64,000 nt of DNA from a virus (lineage: Duplodnaviria > Heunggongvirae > Uroviricota > Caudoviricetes). This document shows positions 6,993-17,300 of the stretch, piece after piece; the stretch's first letter is position 1; each line of letters opens with the position of its first letter. The position numbers and the translations under genes are program-made. The notes below the pieces were generated by a model. The model was not told where the DNA came from, ran no database searches, and saw only the letters and a list, made by a program, of their open reading frames with translations. The stretch covers positions 189,430 through 253,429 of the IMG/VR virus record IMGVR_UViG_3300029305_004950, one strand, 5' to 3'.

Positions 6993-8264
6993 ATGAAAAA
7001 CACTAATGATAAGAGTTCTTATAAGGAGATTGCTAGAGATTATAGAGATATGATCGAGGGCTTAAACAATAGTTTGAGCAAACCTTATAGAATTAAAACG
7101 AAACTCGCAAACTTTGAGAAATGCCTGTTTAAACACTTAGTAAATAATGGAAATGGTGAAGATATTTGTTCTGTACTTATTTCTATTGCTGAACAAACTG
7201 GTATTCCTACTGAACTCATCAGTGATAGCGAAATTGAAATGAATGTTTTCATTAATGATGTAGATGATGAAATTGAGATTAATGAAGAACTTGAAATGAA
7301 TGAATCTGTAGAAGAAAAAGAATCTTCTACTAATGAAAAGAAAGAAAAAGAAAAGGAAACTGTTGATTTCAAGGACATCTTTGAAAAAGGTTTTAATAAG
7401 ACCGTTAAGAATAATCCTGTAACTTCTAGATCTGAAGTAACTAGTCTTGTAAGCCAGTATTATGATATTCAGGCATTTAGAATTGCTGGTGGTAACCGTC
7501 AGTTCCAGCTTGATAATAGTGGAACTAGTGTAGCAACTAATAACAATAATAATCCAAAAAATATTTCCTTTGCATATGTTAATGCTGGATTCAAGGAAAT
7601 TGAGGGAATTATTGTTAAGTGGCTGAAGGATTATGTTGAACATGATAAAATGGGTCAATGGCTTATTGCTACTAAGGGTATTGGTCCTGTTCTAGCTGCA
7701 GGTTTGCTTTCTTATATTGATATCTCTAAGTGTCAAACTGCAGGTTCTATTTGGAGATATGCAGGTTGGGAAGGTCATCGTGCTCCTCGTAAGAAGGGTG
7801 TGAAGCTTGACTATAATCCTAAGTTCAGAGTTCTTTGTTGGAAGTGCGGTGAAAGTTTTCAAAAGCTTTCTGGTACTAAAAAAGATAAGGATGGTAATAC
7901 TATTTATGAAAATGGTAAGCCTGTCTATAAGTCTTATTATGGTGGTCTTTATGCTGAAAAGCTGAAGTTCTATATTGATAAGAATGAAGCTGGTGGTTTT
8001 GCTGAAGCAGCTAAGCTTGCATTGGAAGAAAAGAACATTCAGAATGTGAAGACTAGAGCTACTTATGAATCTGGTAAACTTCCTATGGCTCATATGATTG
8101 CTATGGCTAAGCGTTATGCTGTTAAGATCTTCCTTTCTCACTTGTTCGAAGTCTGGTATGAGTATGAGAATGGGGTTAAGCCTCCTAGACCCTTTGTTGA
8201 AGTTCATCTTGGTCATGTTCATATCATGGAAGCACCTAATAAAAATATTCTTGGTTTGAAGTAA
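6993..8264 (+). CDS. TIGR-associated Nop-domain protein (TasA-like, IS110-related) with N-terminal extension
   Basis: Coiled-coil LVSQYYDIQAFRIAGGNR, IS110/Nop core TKGIGPVLAAGLLSYIDISKCQTAGSIWRYAG and C-terminal HMIAMAKRYAVKIFLSHLFEVW. No RuvC (DEDD) or HNH motif. A 36-nt dual-repeat array follows directly. Confidence 0.85.
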   Translation: MKNTNDKSSYKEIARDYRDMIEGLNNSLSKPYRIKTKLANFEKCLFKHLVNNGNGEDICSVLISIAEQTGIPTELISDSEIEMNVFINDVDDEIEINEELEMNESVEEKESSTNEKKEKEKETVDFKDIFEKGFNKTVKNNPVTSRSEVTSLVSQYYDIQAFRIAGGNRQFQLDNSGTSVATNNNNNPKNISFAYVNAGFKEIEGIIVKWLKDYVEHDKMGQWLIATKGIGPVLAAGLLSYIDISKCQTAGSIWRYAGWEGHRAPRKKGVKLDYNPKFRVLCWKCGESFQKLSGTKKDKDGNTIYENGKPVYKSYYGGLYAEKLKFYIDKNEAGGFAEAAKLALEEKNIQNVKTRATYESGKLPMAHMIAMAKRYAVKIFLSHLFEVWYEYENGVKPPRPFVEVHLGHVHIMEAPNKNILGLK

Positions 8265-8291
8265 GAGGATTTGATGTAATTTCTTTAATTG

Positions 8292-8793
8292 TTTTAATCA
8301 CTACTTAATATAGTATCATACATCAATAATGAATCATCCATAAAAACAGTATCACAAAAATGATAATGAATCACTTATAGACATTCGTAACATGGTGAAT
8401 AAATGAATCAATGAGCATTATAGTATCATTAGCTGTAAATGAATCATCATCAGAAATTTAGTATCAAGGTCATCTAAATGAACCATACTGCGATATAGTA
8501 TCAGTTGATATAAGTGAATCAATGAAGATTATAGTAACAGAACAGGAATAAATGAATCATACCCAAATATAGTATCAGTATCACTGAATGAAATTATTCA
8601 AAAAAATCAAAGGAGGATTTTAGAATTTCATCTATATAACAAAAAATCACGACGACCTATAGTATCAATAACCCGAAATGAATCAATATTAAAAATAGTA
8701 TCAACTTTTAAAAATGAATCAAGCTCTTCAAAAGTATCATATTATTTCAATGAATCAAAGTAGTTTATAGTATCAGATACGCATAATGAAAAA
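8292..8793 (+). ncRNA. TIGR-type dual-repeat guide RNA array 1 (12 clear units plus 1 degenerate unit)
   Basis: Alternating AATGAATCA and ATAGTATCA repeats separated by variable 9-nt spacers, period about 36 nt. Confidence 0.88.
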
Positions 8794-8869: not shown

Positions 8870-10750
8870 TTAGTCAGAATTATTATCAGGATTTTTTATA
8901 TATGTATATACATAATTTCCACAATCCCAAATTCTATAATAATCTGTTTTATCCATAATTTCTTTTTCTGTTAAATTTTCATCATAATACTCTGGAAACA
9001 GTTTTTCTAATTTATGTTTTTGGAATTTAACTCTATTCTCTCTATTTGTAAAATTAGTATAAAAATAGCTAGGTTTACTTATATCATCTAATTTAAATCC
9101 AGTATTCTCGTATAGTCCACCTATAGACCATCTTCTATCAGCATATGTTATAATGCTATTCCATTCATAGTTTTCTTTAAAATACTTAAATAATTTATCA
9201 AATGCACCATATACTTGATATTCTATATCTATAGCAAATCTAGATAATTCATAATCATGATTCTTATTAAATCTAGGTTTACAAAATGTCATAACCGCTA
9301 CTAGTCTATGTTCTTCTTCATTAATAGGATACCATAAACCAAGTTTTATGTTAGCTTTATCTTCACCTTGAATGTGATTTTCATTAAGAAATTGATTCTT
9401 AGTAGTTGAGTCTAGTTCTTCTATATAACATTTACTAGCTCTAATTTTAGTATTGTTATTACAACCAAGAATATGTTTTATCTTAGATTTTACTATATTC
9501 TGTTTGAAATTCCATTCATCTTCAAAGATATGAATTAAACGAATATTCTGTAAACGACAGTTTACAGTTTTATTAAGATGATAATCCTTATCAGATATAT
9601 TCTTTTCACAATGCCAATATAATCCATCAAATTCTATAGCCAAGTTTCTATCTGGAATATAGATATCTAATTCTTTACCATTTAGAATAGTTCTGTTGTT
9701 TTCAGTTATTTCACCATTATAAATGGATTTAATAAAATCCATGATTTCTTTTTCACCATTACTATAACCTTTAATAAGAGAACAATCAGCACATCTACTC
9801 TTTTTTGATGTAAAATGATGAGGTAATACTTCATACTCATTTCCACAAGTATTATGTCTCATTTTTATTTTTACATTAGAGTTTATATACTTTCCTATAA
9901 CAGTATATTCATCTCCAACTTGATCAAAAACCTGTTTTTCAAATTCTTCTTGAGTTAAGGTTGCATCTTTTATTCTACAATCTTTACATCTAGTACCTTG
10001 TTTAAAACAATGAGGAGTTATATATAGATCATCTTTACCACAGATATTGTGTTTCATTCTTACTTTAGTATCAGCATTTACATATTCACCTATAACAGTA
10101 TATTCATCTCCAACTAAATCAAATACTTCTTTCTTATATCTTTCAGTTGTATATGATGAACATATTTTACATCTAACTCCACCTGTAGTAAAAGCATGAG
10201 GTGTAGTTTCATATGTCTGACCACATACTGAATGAAACATCGTTATAGTTTTATTATCTTTAATAAAAGGTGTAGTTGGAATATATTCATCACCGACTAA
10301 ATCAAATACTTTTTTTCTAAATTTTTCATCCTTTTCTTTTTGTAAACATATTTTACATCTGTTTTTTCCTTTTTTAAAACTAGCAGGAATTATTGGATAA
10401 ATTGTACCACATACATTATGTTTTACATCTATATCAGTATTGTTATTTTTGTAAATACCTAATACAGTATACTCATTACCTACTAAATCATAAACTTCTT
10501 TTTTAAATTTTTCTGTAGTACTTTTAAGATTTCCATTACATTTAGGACATCTAGTACCTTTTTTATTTTCTCTATCTTTAAAATGACAAGGTGTTACATA
10601 CCAGTCATCTTTACCACATACATTATGTTTCATTCTAATTTTTGTTTTATCATTTACATATTCACCTATAACAGTATACTCATCACCTACTAAATCATAG
10701 ACAATTTTCTTATATTCTTCAGTATTGGATTTGGGCCACATATATTTCAC
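8870..10750 (-). CDS. Free-standing homing-endonuclease-like protein: 5 Zn-finger repeats, Vsr/PD-(D/E)XK nuclease, GNAT/Mom-like C-terminal domain
   Basis: Repeats DLVGDEY...HNxCG...RCxxC; ELDIYIPDRNLAIEFDGLYWH; LSRFA...YADRRWSIGGLY. Confidence 0.75.
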   Translation of the reverse strand: MKYMWPKSNTEEYKKIVYDLVGDEYTVIGEYVNDKTKIRMKHNVCGKDDWYVTPCHFKDRENKKGTRCPKCNGNLKSTTEKFKKEVYDLVGNEYTVLGIYKNNNTDIDVKHNVCGTIYPIIPASFKKGKNRCKICLQKEKDEKFRKKVFDLVGDEYIPTTPFIKDNKTITMFHSVCGQTYETTPHAFTTGGVRCKICSSYTTERYKKEVFDLVGDEYTVIGEYVNADTKVRMKHNICGKDDLYITPHCFKQGTRCKDCRIKDATLTQEEFEKQVFDQVGDEYTVIGKYINSNVKIKMRHNTCGNEYEVLPHHFTSKKSRCADCSLIKGYSNGEKEIMDFIKSIYNGEITENNRTILNGKELDIYIPDRNLAIEFDGLYWHCEKNISDKDYHLNKTVNCRLQNIRLIHIFEDEWNFKQNIVKSKIKHILGCNNNTKIRASKCYIEELDSTTKNQFLNENHIQGEDKANIKLGLWYPINEEEHRLVAVMTFCKPRFNKNHDYELSRFAIDIEYQVYGAFDKLFKYFKENYEWNSIITYADRRWSIGGLYENTGFKLDDISKPSYFYTNFTNRENRVKFQKHKLEKLFPEYYDENLTEKEIMDKTDYYRIWDCGNYVYTYIKNPDNNSD

Positions 10751-10863: not shown

Positions 10864-11154
10864 TTAAGCGTTTAGATCCTTCTTTAGCTGTGCGCCAGAA
10901 GTGAAGGAAGGCTGCTTACGTGCAGGGATTAGAATCTTTTCAGCAGGGTTCTTAGGATTATGGCCTTCACGAGCTGCTACTTCACGTGCCTTAAAAGTAC
11001 CGAAACCAGTAATCTGGACAATACCATCTTCACGTAGACCAGCAGTGATTAGGTCTAGAATAGTGTTAACAACAGTGTTAGCCTCATTCTGAGTTAGCTT
11101 AACGTTTTCCATAGGAGTCTTAGCGAGTGCCTTTACTAGATCAGTCTTAGTCAT
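10864..11154 (-). CDS. hup: HU-family histone-like DNA-binding protein
   Basis: MTKTDLV...VQITGFGTF...AAREGHNP...IPARKQPSFTSG.QLK; strong codon bias. Confidence 0.93.
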   Translation of the reverse strand: MTKTDLVKALAKTPMENVKLTQNEANTVVNTILDLITAGLREDGIVQITGFGTFKAREVAAREGHNPKNPAEKILIPARKQPSFTSGAQLKKDLNA

Positions 11155-11260
11155 AATTTATATACCATCCTTTTTTTAGTTTTTAATAAATTTTTTAACA
11201 TTTATTTATAAAAATTAGTTTTTAGATTTTTTATATGAAAAAACTAATTTCTATATGTAT

Positions 11261-11272
11261 TATAAATATGTT
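11261..11272 (-). promoter_or_regulatory. Putative late promoter AACA-N6-TA for HU
   Basis: AACA TATTTA TA on the minus strand. Confidence 0.5.
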
Positions 11273-11389
11273 ATTAGCTTTTATTTCTTTTTTATGTAAA
11301 AATTGTATTTTTATCTTAATTTTGAAATATATATAATAAAAGAAGTTAGAAGTAATACATCATATTTTAAGAAAGGAAATGTTAAGAAT

Positions 11390-12856
11390 ATGTATAATCT
11401 ATTACAGAACTATTCAGATGCTAATCCAGAAAGATTTAATGAAGATTTGATCTATTTGAAAGAACATGATACTGTATTAACTCATATCAATTCTATTTTT
11501 AAAGCACTTGAAGTAGTTAATGGAGTAGAATTTCTAGGTTCTACTATTAATGAGGATGAATCTAGTTTTCCTGATTATATCAAACATGAAAAACATCAGG
11601 TAAACATTGCTGAATCTAGACATGTATTGATTGATTTCAAATTCAAGATTTCTGATAGTAAAACTGGTGAAGAAGAAATCATTGAAAAGAGTCTATTCTT
11701 TCCAAAACTAATTGATAAGACTTATTTCATTCTAAATGGTTCTAAGTTCTTCCCTATTTATCAGATTATTGATAGTGCTACTTATAATAACAATGGTAGT
11801 CTAACATTAAAAACTCTACTAATGGGTGTTACTATTCGTACTAAGGACATTGAGTTCTATGATATGATGGGTAATAAATATGATGGAAATATCAAAGTAA
11901 TAGATTTGTTTAAGAATAAGCTGAATTACTTACTATATTTCTTTGTAGATAGAGGCTATACTAAAACTATTGAGTATTTCTTAGGTAAAGAAAATACTAA
12001 GAAAATTCATTTAGTTCTAGATGAAAGTAAGGAATATAAGAAGTTAGTAAATAGTGATAATAGTTATGTAATGTTTAATCTAAAAAATGAAACTATTCTA
12101 GCTATTGAAGAAAACCTATTTGAAAGATATTTCAAATTCTTCACTAATGTAATTGAGATTCTTAGTGGAAATGAAATGTTCCAGATTATGGATCAAGATT
12201 TCTGGAAACTAGAAATGGGTAAAGTATTTAGTAGAAATAAGAATAACTATGAAAGTAAGGCTAATGATATCTTAATCTCATTTAGACGTATTCTAGATAA
12301 TTCTACTCAAAGTACATTAAGACTGAAGGAAGAGAATAAGGAAGATATCTTTGCTATCATTAGATGGATGGTAAGAAACTATGAAACTTTGATCTATCAG
12401 GATAACATGGATCTACGTTATAAAAGAATTAGAATCAATGAATACTTACTTTATGATTTGCTAATTAAGATGTCTAATGCAACTTATCGTCTATTAAATA
12501 AAGCAGAAATTACAATGAAAGATAGACAGCAGTTGTTTAGTACATTAACACCTATGTATGTATTAAAGAAGATTGGTAGTAATGAATTGCTAAGATATTT
12601 CGGTGGTGTAAATGCTATTGAACTTTTCAATCCTAGCCTTAAATTCTCTCAAAGAGGTTTCCAAGGTCTAGGTGAAGGTAGTAGAGATGTTAATAAATCC
12701 TATAGAGGTCTGCACTATTCATATCCTGGAAGAATAGGTCTAACTAGTAGCTCAGCTGGTGATCCTGGCATGAGCGGAACCTTCACTCCATTCTTACAGA
12801 ATTGTGGTTTCTATTTCTCAGATGAAATGTTAGATACTAACGAACAAGATTTTTAA
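11390..12856 (+). CDS. Phage RNA polymerase beta subunit, N-terminal half (AR9 non-virion RNAP-like)
   Basis: FILNGSKFFPIYQIID and YRGLHYSYPGRIGLTSSSAGDPGMSGTFTP (beta fork region). Start moved to ATG 11390 behind GAAAGGA. Confidence 0.85.
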   Translation: MYNLLQNYSDANPERFNEDLIYLKEHDTVLTHINSIFKALEVVNGVEFLGSTINEDESSFPDYIKHEKHQVNIAESRHVLIDFKFKISDSKTGEEEIIEKSLFFPKLIDKTYFILNGSKFFPIYQIIDSATYNNNGSLTLKTLLMGVTIRTKDIEFYDMMGNKYDGNIKVIDLFKNKLNYLLYFFVDRGYTKTIEYFLGKENTKKIHLVLDESKEYKKLVNSDNSYVMFNLKNETILAIEENLFERYFKFFTNVIEILSGNEMFQIMDQDFWKLEMGKVFSRNKNNYESKANDILISFRRILDNSTQSTLRLKEENKEDIFAIIRWMVRNYETLIYQDNMDLRYKRIRINEYLLYDLLIKMSNATYRLLNKAEITMKDRQQLFSTLTPMYVLKKIGSNELLRYFGGVNAIELFNPSLKFSQRGFQGLGEGSRDVNKSYRGLHYSYPGRIGLTSSSAGDPGMSGTFTPFLQNCGFYFSDEMLDTNEQDF

Positions 12857-12941
12857 ATAGTAGTAAAGCGTATTAAATCATACTATAGCTATATATTTTA
12901 GTTATAGTATGATTCTCATAATGAAGGGAATTTATAAAAAA

Positions 12942-13172
12942 ATGAGTTTATTCGATGATTACATGATAAATGCACAATTTAGTAAAGATTTTCCATTTGG
13001 AGTACCTTGTGATACATGGGTAACTAGAGATGGAGTAAAAATAAAACTAAAAGATATGACAATATCTCATATAAAAAATTGTATGAAAATAGTTGGTGAA
13101 GATGATCCTTGGTATCCATACTTTCAAGAAGAGCTAAATAAGAGGAAAAAGAGGAGATTTAGAACTAAATGA
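12942..13172 (+). CDS. Hypothetical phage protein
   Basis: W.TRDG..I.LKDM..SHI.N motif common in phage proteins; start moved to 12942. Confidence 0.6.
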   Translation: MSLFDDYMINAQFSKDFPFGVPCDTWVTRDGVKIKLKDMTISHIKNCMKIVGEDDPWYPYFQEELNKRKKRRFRTK

Positions 13173-13651
13173 AACGAAAAAACTATATTTCATGGGATGA
13201 GTACTTTATGGGAGTTGCTTTATTAGCAGCTAAACGTAGTAAAGATCCAGATAGACAAGTTGGAGCTTGTATTGTAAAGAATAAGAAAATTCTAGCTACT
13301 GGTTATAATGGATTTCCTTGGGGTTGTTCTGATAATGTATTTCCTTGGATGAAGAATCAAAAAAATCCATTAGATAATAAGCAGATGTATGTAGTTCATG
13401 CTGAATTAAATGCTATTTTAAATAGTGGTAGTTCAGATTTAACTGGTAGTACTATCTATGTAGATTTATTTCCATGTAATGAATGTGCTAAAGCAATTAT
13501 TCAAGCTGGAATTAAAGAAGTTGTATATATGAGTGATGAAGATTCAAATAAAGCTACCTATATTGCATCTAGAAATATGTTAAGAATTGCTGGTGTCAAA
13601 ATTAGAAAATTTGGAAATATTGATTTTATCAAAAGATTAAAAGAGGTGTAA
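13169..13651 (+). CDS. dCMP deaminase
   Basis: SWDEYFMGVA, RSKDP, VHAELNAI and FPCNECAKAIIQAGI Zn-deaminase motifs. Confidence 0.93.
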   Translation: MKRKNYISWDEYFMGVALLAAKRSKDPDRQVGACIVKNKKILATGYNGFPWGCSDNVFPWMKNQKNPLDNKQMYVVHAELNAILNSGSSDLTGSTIYVDLFPCNECAKAIIQAGIKEVVYMSDEDSNKATYIASRNMLRIAGVKIRKFGNIDFIKRLKEV

Positions 13652-13655
13652 TCTA

Positions 13656-14003
13656 ATGATTAAAGTAGGAACTCTTAAGAGACTAAATAAGCGTATTGAT
13701 GAGATCGTTGAAACATTTGGTTATGAGGTTTTTGAAGATGCTAAAGCACAAGTAAAAAATCTAGATTACTACTATGGTAAAGATAGAGATATCGATAATG
13801 ATGATGGTGGTTATCTAGTATTTTTAGAAGATCTAACTGATTACAATGAGAATATTGGAAATATCAGTTATGTAATTCAGAATAATTGTTATGAAAATTT
13901 CAAAGAATTTGATGATGGTTTTGTAAGAGTTGACTACATGGTAAATAATGAAACTATGATTTCTGTTTATATGCTGAGTTACTTGTTTCATAAAAAAGAA
14001 TAA
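13656..14003 (+). CDS. Hypothetical protein
   Basis: 115-aa ORF with GAGGTG RBS. Confidence 0.7.
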   Translation: MIKVGTLKRLNKRIDEIVETFGYEVFEDAKAQVKNLDYYYGKDRDIDNDDGGYLVFLEDLTDYNENIGNISYVIQNNCYENFKEFDDGFVRVDYMVNNETMISVYMLSYLFHKKE

Positions 14004-14015
14004 TGGAGGAAAACA

Positions 14016-14420
14016 ATGAATGTTCTATTAAGGAAAATTGATATTAGATCAGATAATGAAATAAACATCCTTAATGAAACTATAGAAACTACTTTCTTTG
14101 GTAGAACTAAAAAAGTAGAAACCATAACTAAAGAAAAGGCAGTATATTCTTACTGGATAGAATTTCATATTGATCAAGGTAGATTCTATTATGGTGAGAC
14201 TAAACCAGTACTAGTACCAAATAGAAAAGATGTATATGTATATCAAACTAGTACTAGTCATACTAAGAGAGGATTGGATAAGAGTTTAGAGATTATAACT
14301 GAGATTAAACAAAGAACTGAACTAATCCATCCTAATTGGGAAATTGAATTACATCAGATTTCAAATATGCCATTCTATAGACAATTTGACAGAGAAAAGA
14401 ATCTATCAGATTACTACTAA
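14016..14420 (+). CDS. Hypothetical protein
   Basis: 134-aa ORF with GGAGGA RBS. Confidence 0.7.
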   Translation: MNVLLRKIDIRSDNEINILNETIETTFFGRTKKVETITKEKAVYSYWIEFHIDQGRFYYGETKPVLVPNRKDVYVYQTSTSHTKRGLDKSLEIITEIKQRTELIHPNWEIELHQISNMPFYRQFDREKNLSDYY

Positions 14421-14429
14421 AATAGAAGT

Positions 14430-15130
14430 TTTTAATCACGTAGGCGAATAGTATCAAAGGTACACAATGAATCAGATGTATTTAAAGTAACATGTTGGTA
14501 TAATGAATCATATAATCCTATAGTATCATCCTCTCATAATGAATTAAACGTATTAAAAAGTAACAGAGGAAATTAATGAATCAATACTACAAAAAAGTAA
14601 CAGTTTATTCTAATGAATCAGTGTAGACGATAGTAACAATGCTAATTAATGAATCAGATGTATTAAAAGTATCACATGGTTATAATGAATCAATATAGTG
14701 AATTAAGTATCAGTAGCCAGAAATGAACTATGTAGTGCAATAGTAACAATTGGAAATAGTGAATCATACTATAGATAGTATCATAGAAATGTAATGAATC
14801 ACTGAATCTAATTTTTAGTAACAAGACTTACTAATGAATCATAGGAGGTCTTAAAGTATCAAAGATATGTAATGAATCAACTTGAATTGATAGTATCATT
14901 GAATGGGAATGAATCATAGCTTTGAATAGTATCAAATATATGTAATGAATCACTGAATCCCTAACCTGTATCAAGGGGATGAAATGAATCACAAAAACTG
15001 ATAGTAACACATAAAATCAATGAATCATATAGTGTAATAGTATCACACTTGCTAATGAATCAATGATTTTAACAGTATCATATGCGGCTAATGAATCATG
15101 TCTGTGATTAGTACCATATATCTTTAATGT
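14430..15130 (+). ncRNA. TIGR-type dual-repeat guide RNA array 2 (19 units, no adjacent tas gene)
   Basis: Same AATGAATCA and ATAGTA(T/A)CA repeats with 9-nt spacers and about 36-nt period as array 1. Confidence 0.88.
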
Positions 15131-15138
15131 AAAACAAA

Positions 15139-15186
15139 GATTGGATAAAGACTTTAGTTAGTCTTTATCCAATCATTTTTTTTTTT
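15139..15186. terminator. Bidirectional terminator closing array 2
   Basis: Stem GATTGGATAAAGAC/GTCTTTATCCAATC followed by a T run. Confidence 0.85.
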
Positions 15187-15865
15187 AGTTCATTTTGATA
15201 GCAATACCAAGTTCAGGGAATCTAGCTTCCATTAAAACTTTACCATTGCTATATCTTTCTTCTTTATTCCATTCTTCCTTTAAGAACTTTAAGCCACGAA
15301 TAATCTGCTTAGTAACTTCTCTTAAATCAGAAGATTCTCTAACAGGAACACAGAAAGATTTAGGATTATAAGATAGAATCTTTAAAGGTTCACAGTTAAT
15401 TCTTAATCCATTTTCATCATAAGCAACTGCTTCATTGATCATTAGATAATGGTTATGATACTCAGTATCTAAAACTACTTGTTTAGTTTTACTAGGTAGA
15501 TTGAAATCAATAGATTCAAAGTAAGCCTGAATATCTAAATCAGTATTATCTAAAGTAGTATCGAAGTTAAAACTACTTTCATTGATAACCTTACGCTTAT
15601 AGACTAGATTCATTTCATTTAAACGCTTATCCCAGAATTCATCAGTGGATTCTTGAGTCAGATTTTCAATGGAAATAGTTTCATTCCATTTAGTGAAATA
15701 GTTAGATACTAGAACCTTACCTAGATCAGTAAAATCTTCAGTATACATTTTGGAATTAATACCAAAAGTCTCTAGATTTTCAATACCAGTATCAGTTAGT
15801 AAGTTTTTACCTTCACACCAAGTATAAAATCTTTCTAATATGTTACAAGAATGATTCTTATTCAT
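15185..15865 (-). CDS. Hypothetical virion (head) protein
   Basis: In a late operon; carries INE/S and INE/A putative protease sites. Confidence 0.5.
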   Translation of the reverse strand: MNKNHSCNILERFYTWCEGKNLLTDTGIENLETFGINSKMYTEDFTDLGKVLVSNYFTKWNETISIENLTQESTDEFWDKRLNEMNLVYKRKVINESSFNFDTTLDNTDLDIQAYFESIDFNLPSKTKQVVLDTEYHNHYLMINEAVAYDENGLRINCEPLKILSYNPKSFCVPVRESSDLREVTKQIIRGLKFLKEEWNKEERYSNGKVLMEARFPELGIAIKMN

Positions 15866-15940
15866 AACTTCTTACTTGCACTTCCTCTCTTTTAAAGATA
15901 CATTTTCATATTACATTTATCTATTTGTTCTTTTAAATCT

Positions 15941-16633
15941 TTATCCTACAAAGATTTTTCTATGTCTACTAGATTTATTGAAGTTTCCTCTCCATTTTTC
16001 TAGTAATTGTTTCTTGTCTTCAAATGCTGAATCAAGTCTATCCATGAATAACTCTAAGTTACCAAATGTAGTATTGATAGTAGCAAAACGTTGTCTAATA
16101 GGATAAAGAGCTATACGTACATCATATAAAGCGCATTCTAAAAACTCATTTCGATATCCTAAAGGAATAGTAGCTAAATGATCAGGATGAATAGTTTTTA
16201 CTTCTACAGTAAACTTACCTAATAGTTGAGTTTTAGGATATACTGAAACTATGTTAGGTGCTTCATAAGCAAATGTAATAGGTTGTAAGAACATAGAAGC
16301 AATATCAGCTGTCATTTGTCTATTAACAGGATCACTATCATAGTATGCTAAAGGTAAACCAGAATTACCCATGTAATTCTCTGCTAATACTTTAGAAACA
16401 CCAAGAATTTCTTTATCAGTTTTTAGATAAAAAGTATTAAAACGATTAGGTACTTTGTCTTCAGCTGGAGTAATAGTTAGTAATTCATAATGAGGATAGT
16501 AAATACTGAAAGTAGGAACTGTCTGAGTTCTTACTACATCCATTATCTCATTAGCATCTAATTCTAATACTTGTAAACTAGCACCTAGATTTAGTTCTAT
16601 ATATTGCAATACATCAGTAGGATTCATTGCCAT
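15941..16633 (-). CDS. Putative neck/head-completion protein (T4 gp13-like)
   Basis: N-terminal IELNLGASLQVLELDANEIMD resembles the gp13 LG.P.INVEL..QI motif. Confidence 0.55.
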   Translation of the reverse strand: MAMNPTDVLQYIELNLGASLQVLELDANEIMDVVRTQTVPTFSIYYPHYELLTITPAEDKVPNRFNTFYLKTDKEILGVSKVLAENYMGNSGLPLAYYDSDPVNRQMTADIASMFLQPITFAYEAPNIVSVYPKTQLLGKFTVEVKTIHPDHLATIPLGYRNEFLECALYDVRIALYPIRQRFATINTTFGNLELFMDRLDSAFEDKKQLLEKWRGNFNKSSRHRKIFVG

Positions 16634-16661
16634 AATGTATTAGTCACCTACTTTCTGTTGA

Positions 16662-17300
16662 TTAGCCTTCGATATCTCTTTGAATACCAGTATCAATAAT
16701 CATATCGTTGTAATGAGAACCATTAGGAACTTTTAATTTACCTTGATTAGGATCAGCTAATACTCTTAAAGGATCATCATTATTGATTTCATCCTTTAGA
16801 TCTTTAGTAGTAGCATTACCTTGATTTTCAGGAGAAATTTCATAAGTATTGGAACTAAAGCCAGGAACTATAAAACTAACTTTGTTACTATCGTCCATAG
16901 TATCATCAAAAGCTTCAGACTTAATACCTAGTGCAAAGTTCTTGTAGTTATCTACATACGTATTACCAAATTCGATTAATCTAGTATCTTCAGAATAAGT
17001 CTTTAGTTCAAAGTAAACATCAGCTTTTTCTTTTTTTAGATAACGATTTACAGTTTCTTGTAAGAGTTTCATGTTATTGATAAATCTTACTTGTTCCATT
17101 TCATCTAAAGTATCTTCTATATCAATGGGATTTACATTTAAAGCAATACCTAAAAACTTACCATTATCTACAAACTGAACACTAGATTCAGTAAAGTAAG
17201 GTTTTAGATAAGAGTTCATCTTACTTCTCTGTAGGTCATGATTGATGTTTTTAGCTATACGTAAACCCATTTTCTTTAAATCTTCTTTATTATAAGACAT
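16662..17300 (-). CDS. Hypothetical virion protein
   Basis: 212-aa ORF under a late-type promoter; FTE/S putative cleavage site. Confidence 0.5.
   Translation of the reverse strand: MSYNKEDLKKMGLRIAKNINHDLQRSKMNSYLKPYFTESSVQFVDNGKFLGIALNVNPIDIEDTLDEMEQVRFINNMKLLQETVNRYLKKEKADVYFELKTYSEDTRLIEFGNTYVDNYKNFALGIKSEAFDDTMDDSNKVSFIVPGFSSNTYEISPENQGNATTKDLKDEINNDDPLRVLADPNQGKLKVPNGSHYNDMIIDTGIQRDIEG

Follow-up and report, generated by a model that had tools for sequence, protein, structure and literature searches.

Introduction

An array of guide units that lies away from the sole effector gene of its genome raises the question of whether it is a working part of that system or a leftover of it. We have addressed this question for an array of the TIGR (tandem interspaced guide RNA) type, here array 2, in a window of 64,000 nucleotides (positions 189,430 to 253,429 of the IMG/VR virus record IMGVR_UViG_3300029305_004950), which belongs to a jumbo phage genome, G000, whose record of 319,626 bp with 28.6% G+C is rated complete and comes from animal faeces metagenomes. 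As judged from its sequence and from those of related phages, array 2 probably functions as a remote dual-repeat TIGR array within the single TIGR-TasA system of this phage. The features on which this reading turns are listed below in window coordinates.

14430..15129, + strand: array 2, 19 head-to-tail dual-repeat TIGR units
15139..15185, + strand: intrinsic terminator of array 2, made up of a 15-pair hairpin (15139-15174) and the T run after it, fold -22.2 kcal/mol
11303..14420, + strand: gene run 5' of array 2, comprising a polymerase-like gene of 517 aa (phrog_2943), an 87-aa open reading frame (ORF), a dCMP deaminase gene (PF00383) and two hypotheticals of 115 aa and 134 aa
6993..8264, + strand: tas, 423 aa, the sole tas gene of G000

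Anatomy and setting of array 2

Dual-repeat TIGR arrays are defined by two short alternating repeats, 9-nt spacers, a 5'-truncated first edge repeat and a 3'-truncated last edge repeat with a terminator (PMC12045711), and array 2 belongs to this class because its anatomy agrees with the definition throughout. Each unit runs from the edge repeat AATGAATCA through the 9-nt spacer A and a loop repeat of 8-13 nt ending in AGTAWCA to the 9-nt spacer B; the first edge repeat is truncated at its 5' end (TTTTAATCA at 14430) and the last one at its 3' end (AATG at 15126-15129). The units start at 14430, 14466, 14502, 14538, 14575, 14612, 14648, 14684, 14722, 14758, 14793, 14833, 14871, 14908, 14944, 14983, 15019, 15054 and 15090 and measure 35-40 nt, exactly 36 nt in 10 of the 19 cases, with the surplus bases of the remaining units located 5' in the loop repeat. 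A previous sequence-only reading of this locus had counted 19 units, listed their spacer pairs, and equated the repeats, 9-nt spacers, truncated first edge and terminal hairpin with those of array 1, the array beside tas; all 19 units and spacer pairs are present in the sequence as written, unit parsing and folding confirm the likeness, and a comparison of the two arrays reveals no spacer pair in common, as had been stated.

Searched over the 319,626-bp genome, the pattern edge-N11-AGTANCA returns 18 matches on the + strand, 0 on the - strand and 0 for a reversed-pattern control, and 23 of the 24 exact copies of AATGAATCA in the window fall inside arrays 1 and 2. The largest array of G000 is array 2. 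The motifs that precede the spacers at the RNA level are UCA (edge) and UCA/ACA (loop), and those that follow them are AAUG (edge) and A(U/A)AG (loop); compared with the one published consensus that we considered, these box-like motifs agree in position and differ in letters. No Rfam family matches array 2, and its RNA shows no excess of structure over shuffled sequences (z +0.6).

The last stop codon before the array ends at 14420 and the first unit begins 10 nt further on the same strand; because only these 10 nt separate the two, there is no space for a promoter of its own or for a terminator upstream, and array 2 would be co-transcribed with the gene run at 11303..14420. That this run contains a dCMP deaminase and hypotheticals, as had been proposed, is borne out by the PF00383 match. 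The terminator is bidirectional: the convergent gene at 15185-15865 (-) uses it as well. The regular 36-bp periodicity and the intergenic position would also suit repeats that act at the DNA level, as an iteron-like or partition-site binding array and not as RNA guides, and occasional links between TasA loci and ParB-like genes have been described; however, each array is co-oriented with its upstream gene, starts just after it and ends in a terminator, the pattern matches are confined to one strand, and the architecture is that of TIGR arrays shown elsewhere to be transcribed and processed, all of which makes a DNA-level role extremely unlikely.

What sets array 2 apart is its place. Published arrays lie upstream or downstream of tas, flank it or sit inside it (Faure et al. 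2025, PMC12045711; Xu et al. 2026, bioRxiv 10.64898/2026.09.09.750476), and array 2 falls outside the published placement directly upstream, downstream or inside the tas gene: 6,166 nt separate the tas stop codon from its start, a stretch occupied by array 1, a gene for a 626-aa HNH-endonuclease-like protein and a run of five genes. The 5.6 kb that the sequence-only reading gave for this gap is measured from where array 1 ends; counted from the tas stop codon (8264), the gap is 6.2 kb. Since tas is present in the same genome, this departure bears on the location of the array and not on the system to which it belongs.

A single Tas protein

The Tas protein comprises a small domain of three modelled helices (residues 1-80), an acidic disordered linker (82-130) and a coiled-coil and Nop core (~130-423). 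A phmmer search against the PDB matches it to the Nop domains of TasR 9mty_A (E 2.6e-12) and TasH (E 5.5e-7), and a Foldseek search of the PDB with its AlphaFold model (predicted local distance difference test score, pLDDT, 80.6) places TasR and TasH at all of ranks 1-11, with IS110-family recombinases next. No Pfam family was matched and no HNH or RuvC nuclease domain was detected in Tas, and its homologues are mostly solo-Nop proteins of ~290 aa without the N-terminal extension; because of the missing nuclease families and the prevalence of solo-Nop homologues, we assign the product of 6993-8264 to the TasA type and predict it to be nuclease-less.

Comparisons were made over a five-phage set (G000 and four jumbo phages, G001 to G004) that holds 14 arrays and 199 parsed units. 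Across the six-frame ORFs of all five genomes a profile hidden Markov model (HMM) recovered no second Tas/Nop-like ORF at E <= 10, and neither did a protein search of G000.

An old site with young guides

Around array 2, G001, L268/L269 and L270 all retain one gene order (dCMP deaminase, 134-aa homologue, array, convergent 226-aa homologue). The syntenic array holds about 12 units in L268/L269 and at least 10 in L270, and conservation of the site extends to at least four lineages. Its guides are not. The flanks of array 2 in G000 and G001 share 75-79% DNA identity and the arrays themselves align via their repeats only, the mean best distance between their spacers (9.76) being close to that of control comparisons between unrelated arrays (9.95), and no guide is common to the syntenic array-2 sites. 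The repeats, with an edge repeat of 9 nt, are 91-100% conserved across the 199 units. The array-2 site is thus old and its guide content young. The comparison of relatives at this locus, which had been suggested as a check on array presence and polar unit gain, therefore yields the former, while the gain or loss of units cannot be read from strain L271 (99.2% identical), because array 1 of this strain is identical to that of G000.

How arrays grow is better seen in the relatives. In the 44-unit array of G003 the spacer distance drops to 9.83 at an offset of 18 units, compared with ~12.5 at every other offset, which reveals an old block duplication within this array. Two arrays of G001 hold one common guide (18/18) whose loop repeats differ at several positions, and the array-2 guide at 14871 (ACTTGAATT / TTGAATGGG) recurs with 17/18 identity in the remote array of G002, a phage whose Tas is 47% identical, again with a loop repeat that differs at several positions. 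To our knowledge no acquisition machinery exists for TIGR arrays, and growth here appears to proceed by block duplication and mutation. The single difference between the G000 and G002 guides sits at spacer A position 1, where SpTasH, the TasH of Salicola phage CGphi29 (PDB 9W03/9W04/21KL; PMC13421893), tolerates a mismatch, a property that fits this difference. Two guides better kept than the loop repeat between their spacers point to selection on guides in remote arrays, and this suggests that such guides are used.

In contigs from four DNA runs array 2 is identical across the parts that they cover, and no polymorphism is seen. Two side observations from run contigs concern this region. One contig in each of the runs X4, X6 and X7 fuses array 1 (window 8430) to array 2 (14870) and skips 6.4 kb, with a shorter side of 30 letters only; the junction could be an inter-array recombinant, a related phage or a repeat artefact. 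The dCMP deaminase gene (13157-13790) shows a contig depth 10-20x that of its neighbours in four faecal runs, probably because bacterial deaminase genes cross-match it at the conserved zinc-binding motif.

Dispersal of arrays in G000 and its relatives

Motif and nhmmer scans of the whole of G000 reveal three arrays with repeats identical in kind and no solitary units elsewhere. Those other than array 2 are the following.

8291..8790, + strand: array 1, with the same repeats as array 2; 8 units, an interruption of ~55 nt, 4 units and a terminator
G000:266953-267067, + strand, outside the window: array 3, 3 units with the same repeats, 69 kb from tas

The genome scan for further arrays and tas genes that the sequence-only reading had called for thus brought to light a third array and no second tas, and its estimate of one Tas protein gene with more than 30 guides holds: the profile HMM finds one tas, and the guides number 12 + 19 + 3 = 34.

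An alignment-based scan of IMG/VR yielded 80 tas loci. Among the phages concerned, the four jumbo phages (210-299 kb; Tas 45-64% identical) share the edge and loop repeats of G000 and carry between one and five arrays with one tas each, at the following distances from tas: 0.1, 10 and 17 kb in G001; 0.04 and 10 kb in G002; 0.8, 16, 56, 122 and 151 kb in the five arrays of G003. The sole detectable array of G004 (L015 record), with ~31 units at 9096-10364 (-), lies 111 kb from tas (121228-122007), and none is adjacent to the gene. That arrays spread or expand independently of the protein gene, as had been proposed, agrees with the different array positions in these relatives, with the distant G004 array, with the guide present in two G001 arrays and with the 18-unit block duplication. 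Two phages of ~160 kb with a similar edge repeat have every array adjoining tas, for which reason we regard dispersal as a trait of this clade, the unrelated locus L066, with a second array 9 kb away, being an exception. A megablast search of 11000-17000 against the phage collection gave no match. In another relative, the P0124 contig, for which we have the gene map only, tas is followed after 163 nt by an HU-like gene, and the array-2 site is a gap free of genes.

The 14 arrays of the five phages begin 7-307 nt after a same-strand ORF, within ~100 nt in 11 of them, and most close with AATG, a strong hairpin and a T run. The preceding genes include those for polymerase-like proteins and dCMP deaminase, for a fragment of RNA polymerase beta and for a virion structural protein; a search for a gene family that travels with the arrays found these upstream genes to be mutually unrelated. 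The sequence-only reading had located the arrays at the 3' ends of early operons. These data support placement at operon 3' ends, whereas the label 'early' is not supported, given that genes for an RNA polymerase subunit and for virion structure also precede arrays.

Targets of the guides

The one guide with an exact natural match is found in array 1. When spacer B of the guide CGACGACCT / ATAACCCGA, the first unit after the interruption, is joined to the reverse complement of its spacer A, the resulting 18-mer occurs exactly in 24 viral contigs, and 18 of the 20 viral loci examined place it within a tRNA-Met(CAT) gene, in sense orientation and beginning at the anticodon. This exact match establishes for that guide a gapless target geometry, 5'-B followed by the reverse complement of A-3'. 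The CCC that follows the match fits an initiator tRNA. In a search for a host, only 10 of 401 sampled genomes of the Clostridium sporogenes phylum contained this tRNA-fMet 18-mer exactly. When the guides are compared with 103 tRNA genes of the loci analysed, this guide alone stands out. All 199 guides were also compared with the five genomes, allowing four geometries and gaps from 0 to 12, which gave self and cross-phage counts equal to those of controls and no meaningful exact hits.

For array 2, the conserved guide TTGAATGGGAATTCAAG has 91 matches in genome_contigs, compared with ~70 expected by chance as estimated from collection size, in contexts that are unrelated except for a Poribacteria gene and one gut element, and 8 unrelated matches in viral_contigs. 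The first guide, AAGGTACACTCGCCTACG, has 0 viral matches and one in a metagenome contig of 60% GC, which is the chance level. A 17/18 match to the conserved guide, with its mismatch at spacer A position 1, lies at L248:4604-4620 (+) and L186:7920-7936 (-), within an ORF of 473 aa that has a weak hit to HEPN (RiboL-PSP); its neighbours in this defence island are Schlafen-type helicase, GNAT and ApeA-like genes, and both loci come from low-GC gut metagenome-assembled genomes whose shared 949 nt are 100% identical. We take this HEPN-like gene match as a lead towards silencing of a host defence gene, consistent with chance, because the total number of matches equals the chance prediction.

Proposed mechanism and its weighing

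Some observations weigh against a working array 2. Roughly half of its units deviate from 36 nt, the length at which the guide is fixed in the dual-repeat literature. No natural target of any array-2 guide was found among phage genomes and tRNA genes or, for the conserved and the first guides, in the genome, viral and metagenome collections. The runs that contain G000 are DNA throughout, with no RNA run among them. Finally, Tas departs from the Tyr/His processing dyad of SpTasH, of which H296 aligns with the invariant H408 and Y289 with Phe401; given this replacement, self-processing may differ or need a host RNase. More distant Tas homologues have a Tyr at the Phe401 position.

The irregular unit length and the guides without a found target, together with the six genes that separate array 2 from tas, are what a decaying, unused copy would display, that is, a duplicated array no longer expressed or loaded. 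Decay is nevertheless improbable: the edge and loop repeats are kept as well as in tas-adjacent arrays, the truncated ends and the terminator are intact, an intact array occupies the same site in at least four lineages although all spacers have changed, one guide is kept at 17/18 in a distant phage despite its differing loop repeat, and the array is the largest in the genome. A second alternative is that array 2 is functional but used by another phage or host protein, given that its use in trans by the Tas encoded at 6993 is itself only deduced and that the catalytic Tyr of the known dyad is replaced in this protein. We judge this very unlikely, as no further Tas/Nop-like ORF was found in the five genomes, the repeats of array 2 are identical to those beside tas, and the only array of G004 is so far removed from the only tas of that phage.

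These comparisons support the reading of array 2 as a further TIGR array that one Tas protein serves in trans, and this reading fits all that could be tested. According to it, array 2 would form the 3' tail of the transcript from the polymerase/dCMP-deaminase gene run, and this transcript would end at the hairpin 15139-15174. Tas dimers made from the gene 6.2 kb upstream would bind its units via the edge and loop repeats, through their box C/D-like UCA/ACA and UG/AG motifs, and the precursor would be cut inside the edge repeats to give about 19 TIGR-derived guide RNAs (tigRNAs) of 35-40 nt. The ribonucleoprotein may then recognise double-stranded DNA that reads, 5' to 3', spacer B and then the reverse complement of A, with B pairing to one strand and A to the other. 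Because Tas has no nuclease domain, the outcome would be binding and blocking of DNA, hence transcriptional repression, and not cutting; both TasA (MbTasA) and dead TasR are RNA-guided repressors (bioRxiv 10.64898/2026.09.09.750476). We thus infer transcription, processing, loading in trans and repression for array 2, and host or competitor DNA as its target.

Elements near arrays 1 and 3

Some further elements lie close to the other arrays of the genome. The interruption of array 1 (window 8590-8650) includes an AGGAGG-like stretch. Between this array and the array-2 operon stands the gene for the 626-aa HNH/homing-endonuclease-like protein, at 8870-10750 (-) (phrog_559, E 2e-167). G001 has an orphan array at the matching place beside a homologue of this gene and its tas with an array of its own 17 kb away, and for that reason array 1 may represent two arrays that have become adjacent.

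Array 3 starts ~130 nt after a 562-aa ORF, which a sequence motif read by eye marks as family-B DNA-polymerase-like, and has no strong terminator downstream. Just 5' of it, G000:266854-266931 (+) forms a 20-pair hairpin (-25.7 kcal/mol) that encloses one unit-like sequence (the edge-like AATGAATAATCA, a spacer, the loop TGTATCA and a spacer), its 3' flank being the reverse complement of the edge repeat. This element resembles a single stem-loop-type tigRNA or a terminator made from an array unit.

Relation to known systems

Array 2 represents a known type of element, the TIGR array, in a new genome organisation, for the literature that we searched places arrays beside, around or inside tas and mentions neither orphan or remote arrays nor jumbo phages. 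The closest relatives are the dual-repeat TIGR-TasA systems of FpTasA (Flavonifractor plautii) and MbTasA; as in array 2, edge and loop repeats alternate with two 9-nt spacers, the terminal repeats are truncated, a terminator is present, the Tas is a solo-Nop protein without nuclease, and the origin is phage. It differs from them in that the arrays of G000 lie 6.2 kb (behind six genes) and 69 kb off, and those of its relatives up to ~150 kb off or with none adjacent, in a loop repeat whose length varies from 8 to 14 nt, and in a Tas that adds an N-terminal helical domain and an acidic linker. ParTasR has CCA before its spacers, in contrast to the UCA/ACA seen here. SpTasH is likewise part of a phage-encoded dual-repeat system, and its Nop fold matches the Tas model with a template modelling (TM) score, by target, of up to 0.72, while the His of its processing dyad (H296) is conserved as H408; unlike Tas, it bears an HNH nuclease and cuts DNA, and it keeps Tyr289 where Tas has Phe401.

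Two less closely related systems share the layout. The box C/D sRNA genes of archaea, which rely on a single Nop5-fibrillarin-L7Ae set, also combine many scattered dual-guide RNAs and box C/D-like motifs with one Nop-domain protein acting in trans; those RNAs, however, guide RNA methylation, need kink-turns and L7Ae and are mostly single genes, whereas the guides described here stand in tandem arrays and, by homology, would direct DNA binding. CRISPR arrays that are orphan or remote, phage-borne mini-arrays among them, similarly hold guides at a distance from effector genes, serve in trans and turn over their spacers fast at a fixed locus, but their repeat architecture and protein family are unrelated.

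Implications

TIGR-Tas was first described in 2025, and published surveys sought arrays around tas genes; this clade has arrays tens to more than 100 kb from a single tas, at stable sites with complete turnover of guides. Annotation consequently needs whole-genome scanning and not the flanks of tas alone, as the true number of guides per system can be much larger than the flank suggests, here 34 instead of the 12 found by tas. The same genomes point to block duplication followed by divergence as a route of array growth and suggest which guides are under selection and so worth testing for targets. They also bring TIGR organisation nearer to that of the dispersed box C/D sRNA genes, its suspected kin.

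A wider proposal, which we put forward tentatively and consider rather unlikely, is that the TIGR system of this clade constitutes a dispersed regulon, in which arrays at the 3' ends of replication, RNA polymerase and virion operons would supply a TasA that silences host genes with guides made by block duplication and point mutation. Batches of guides would then be released together with their operons, and no acquisition machinery would be needed; the sole exact target match that bears on this proposal so far is the initiator-tRNA gene. One TIGR-Tas paper leaves open why a branch of tas has no array, and if such a regulon exists, the 'arrayless' tas genes of the literature may have their arrays elsewhere in the genome.
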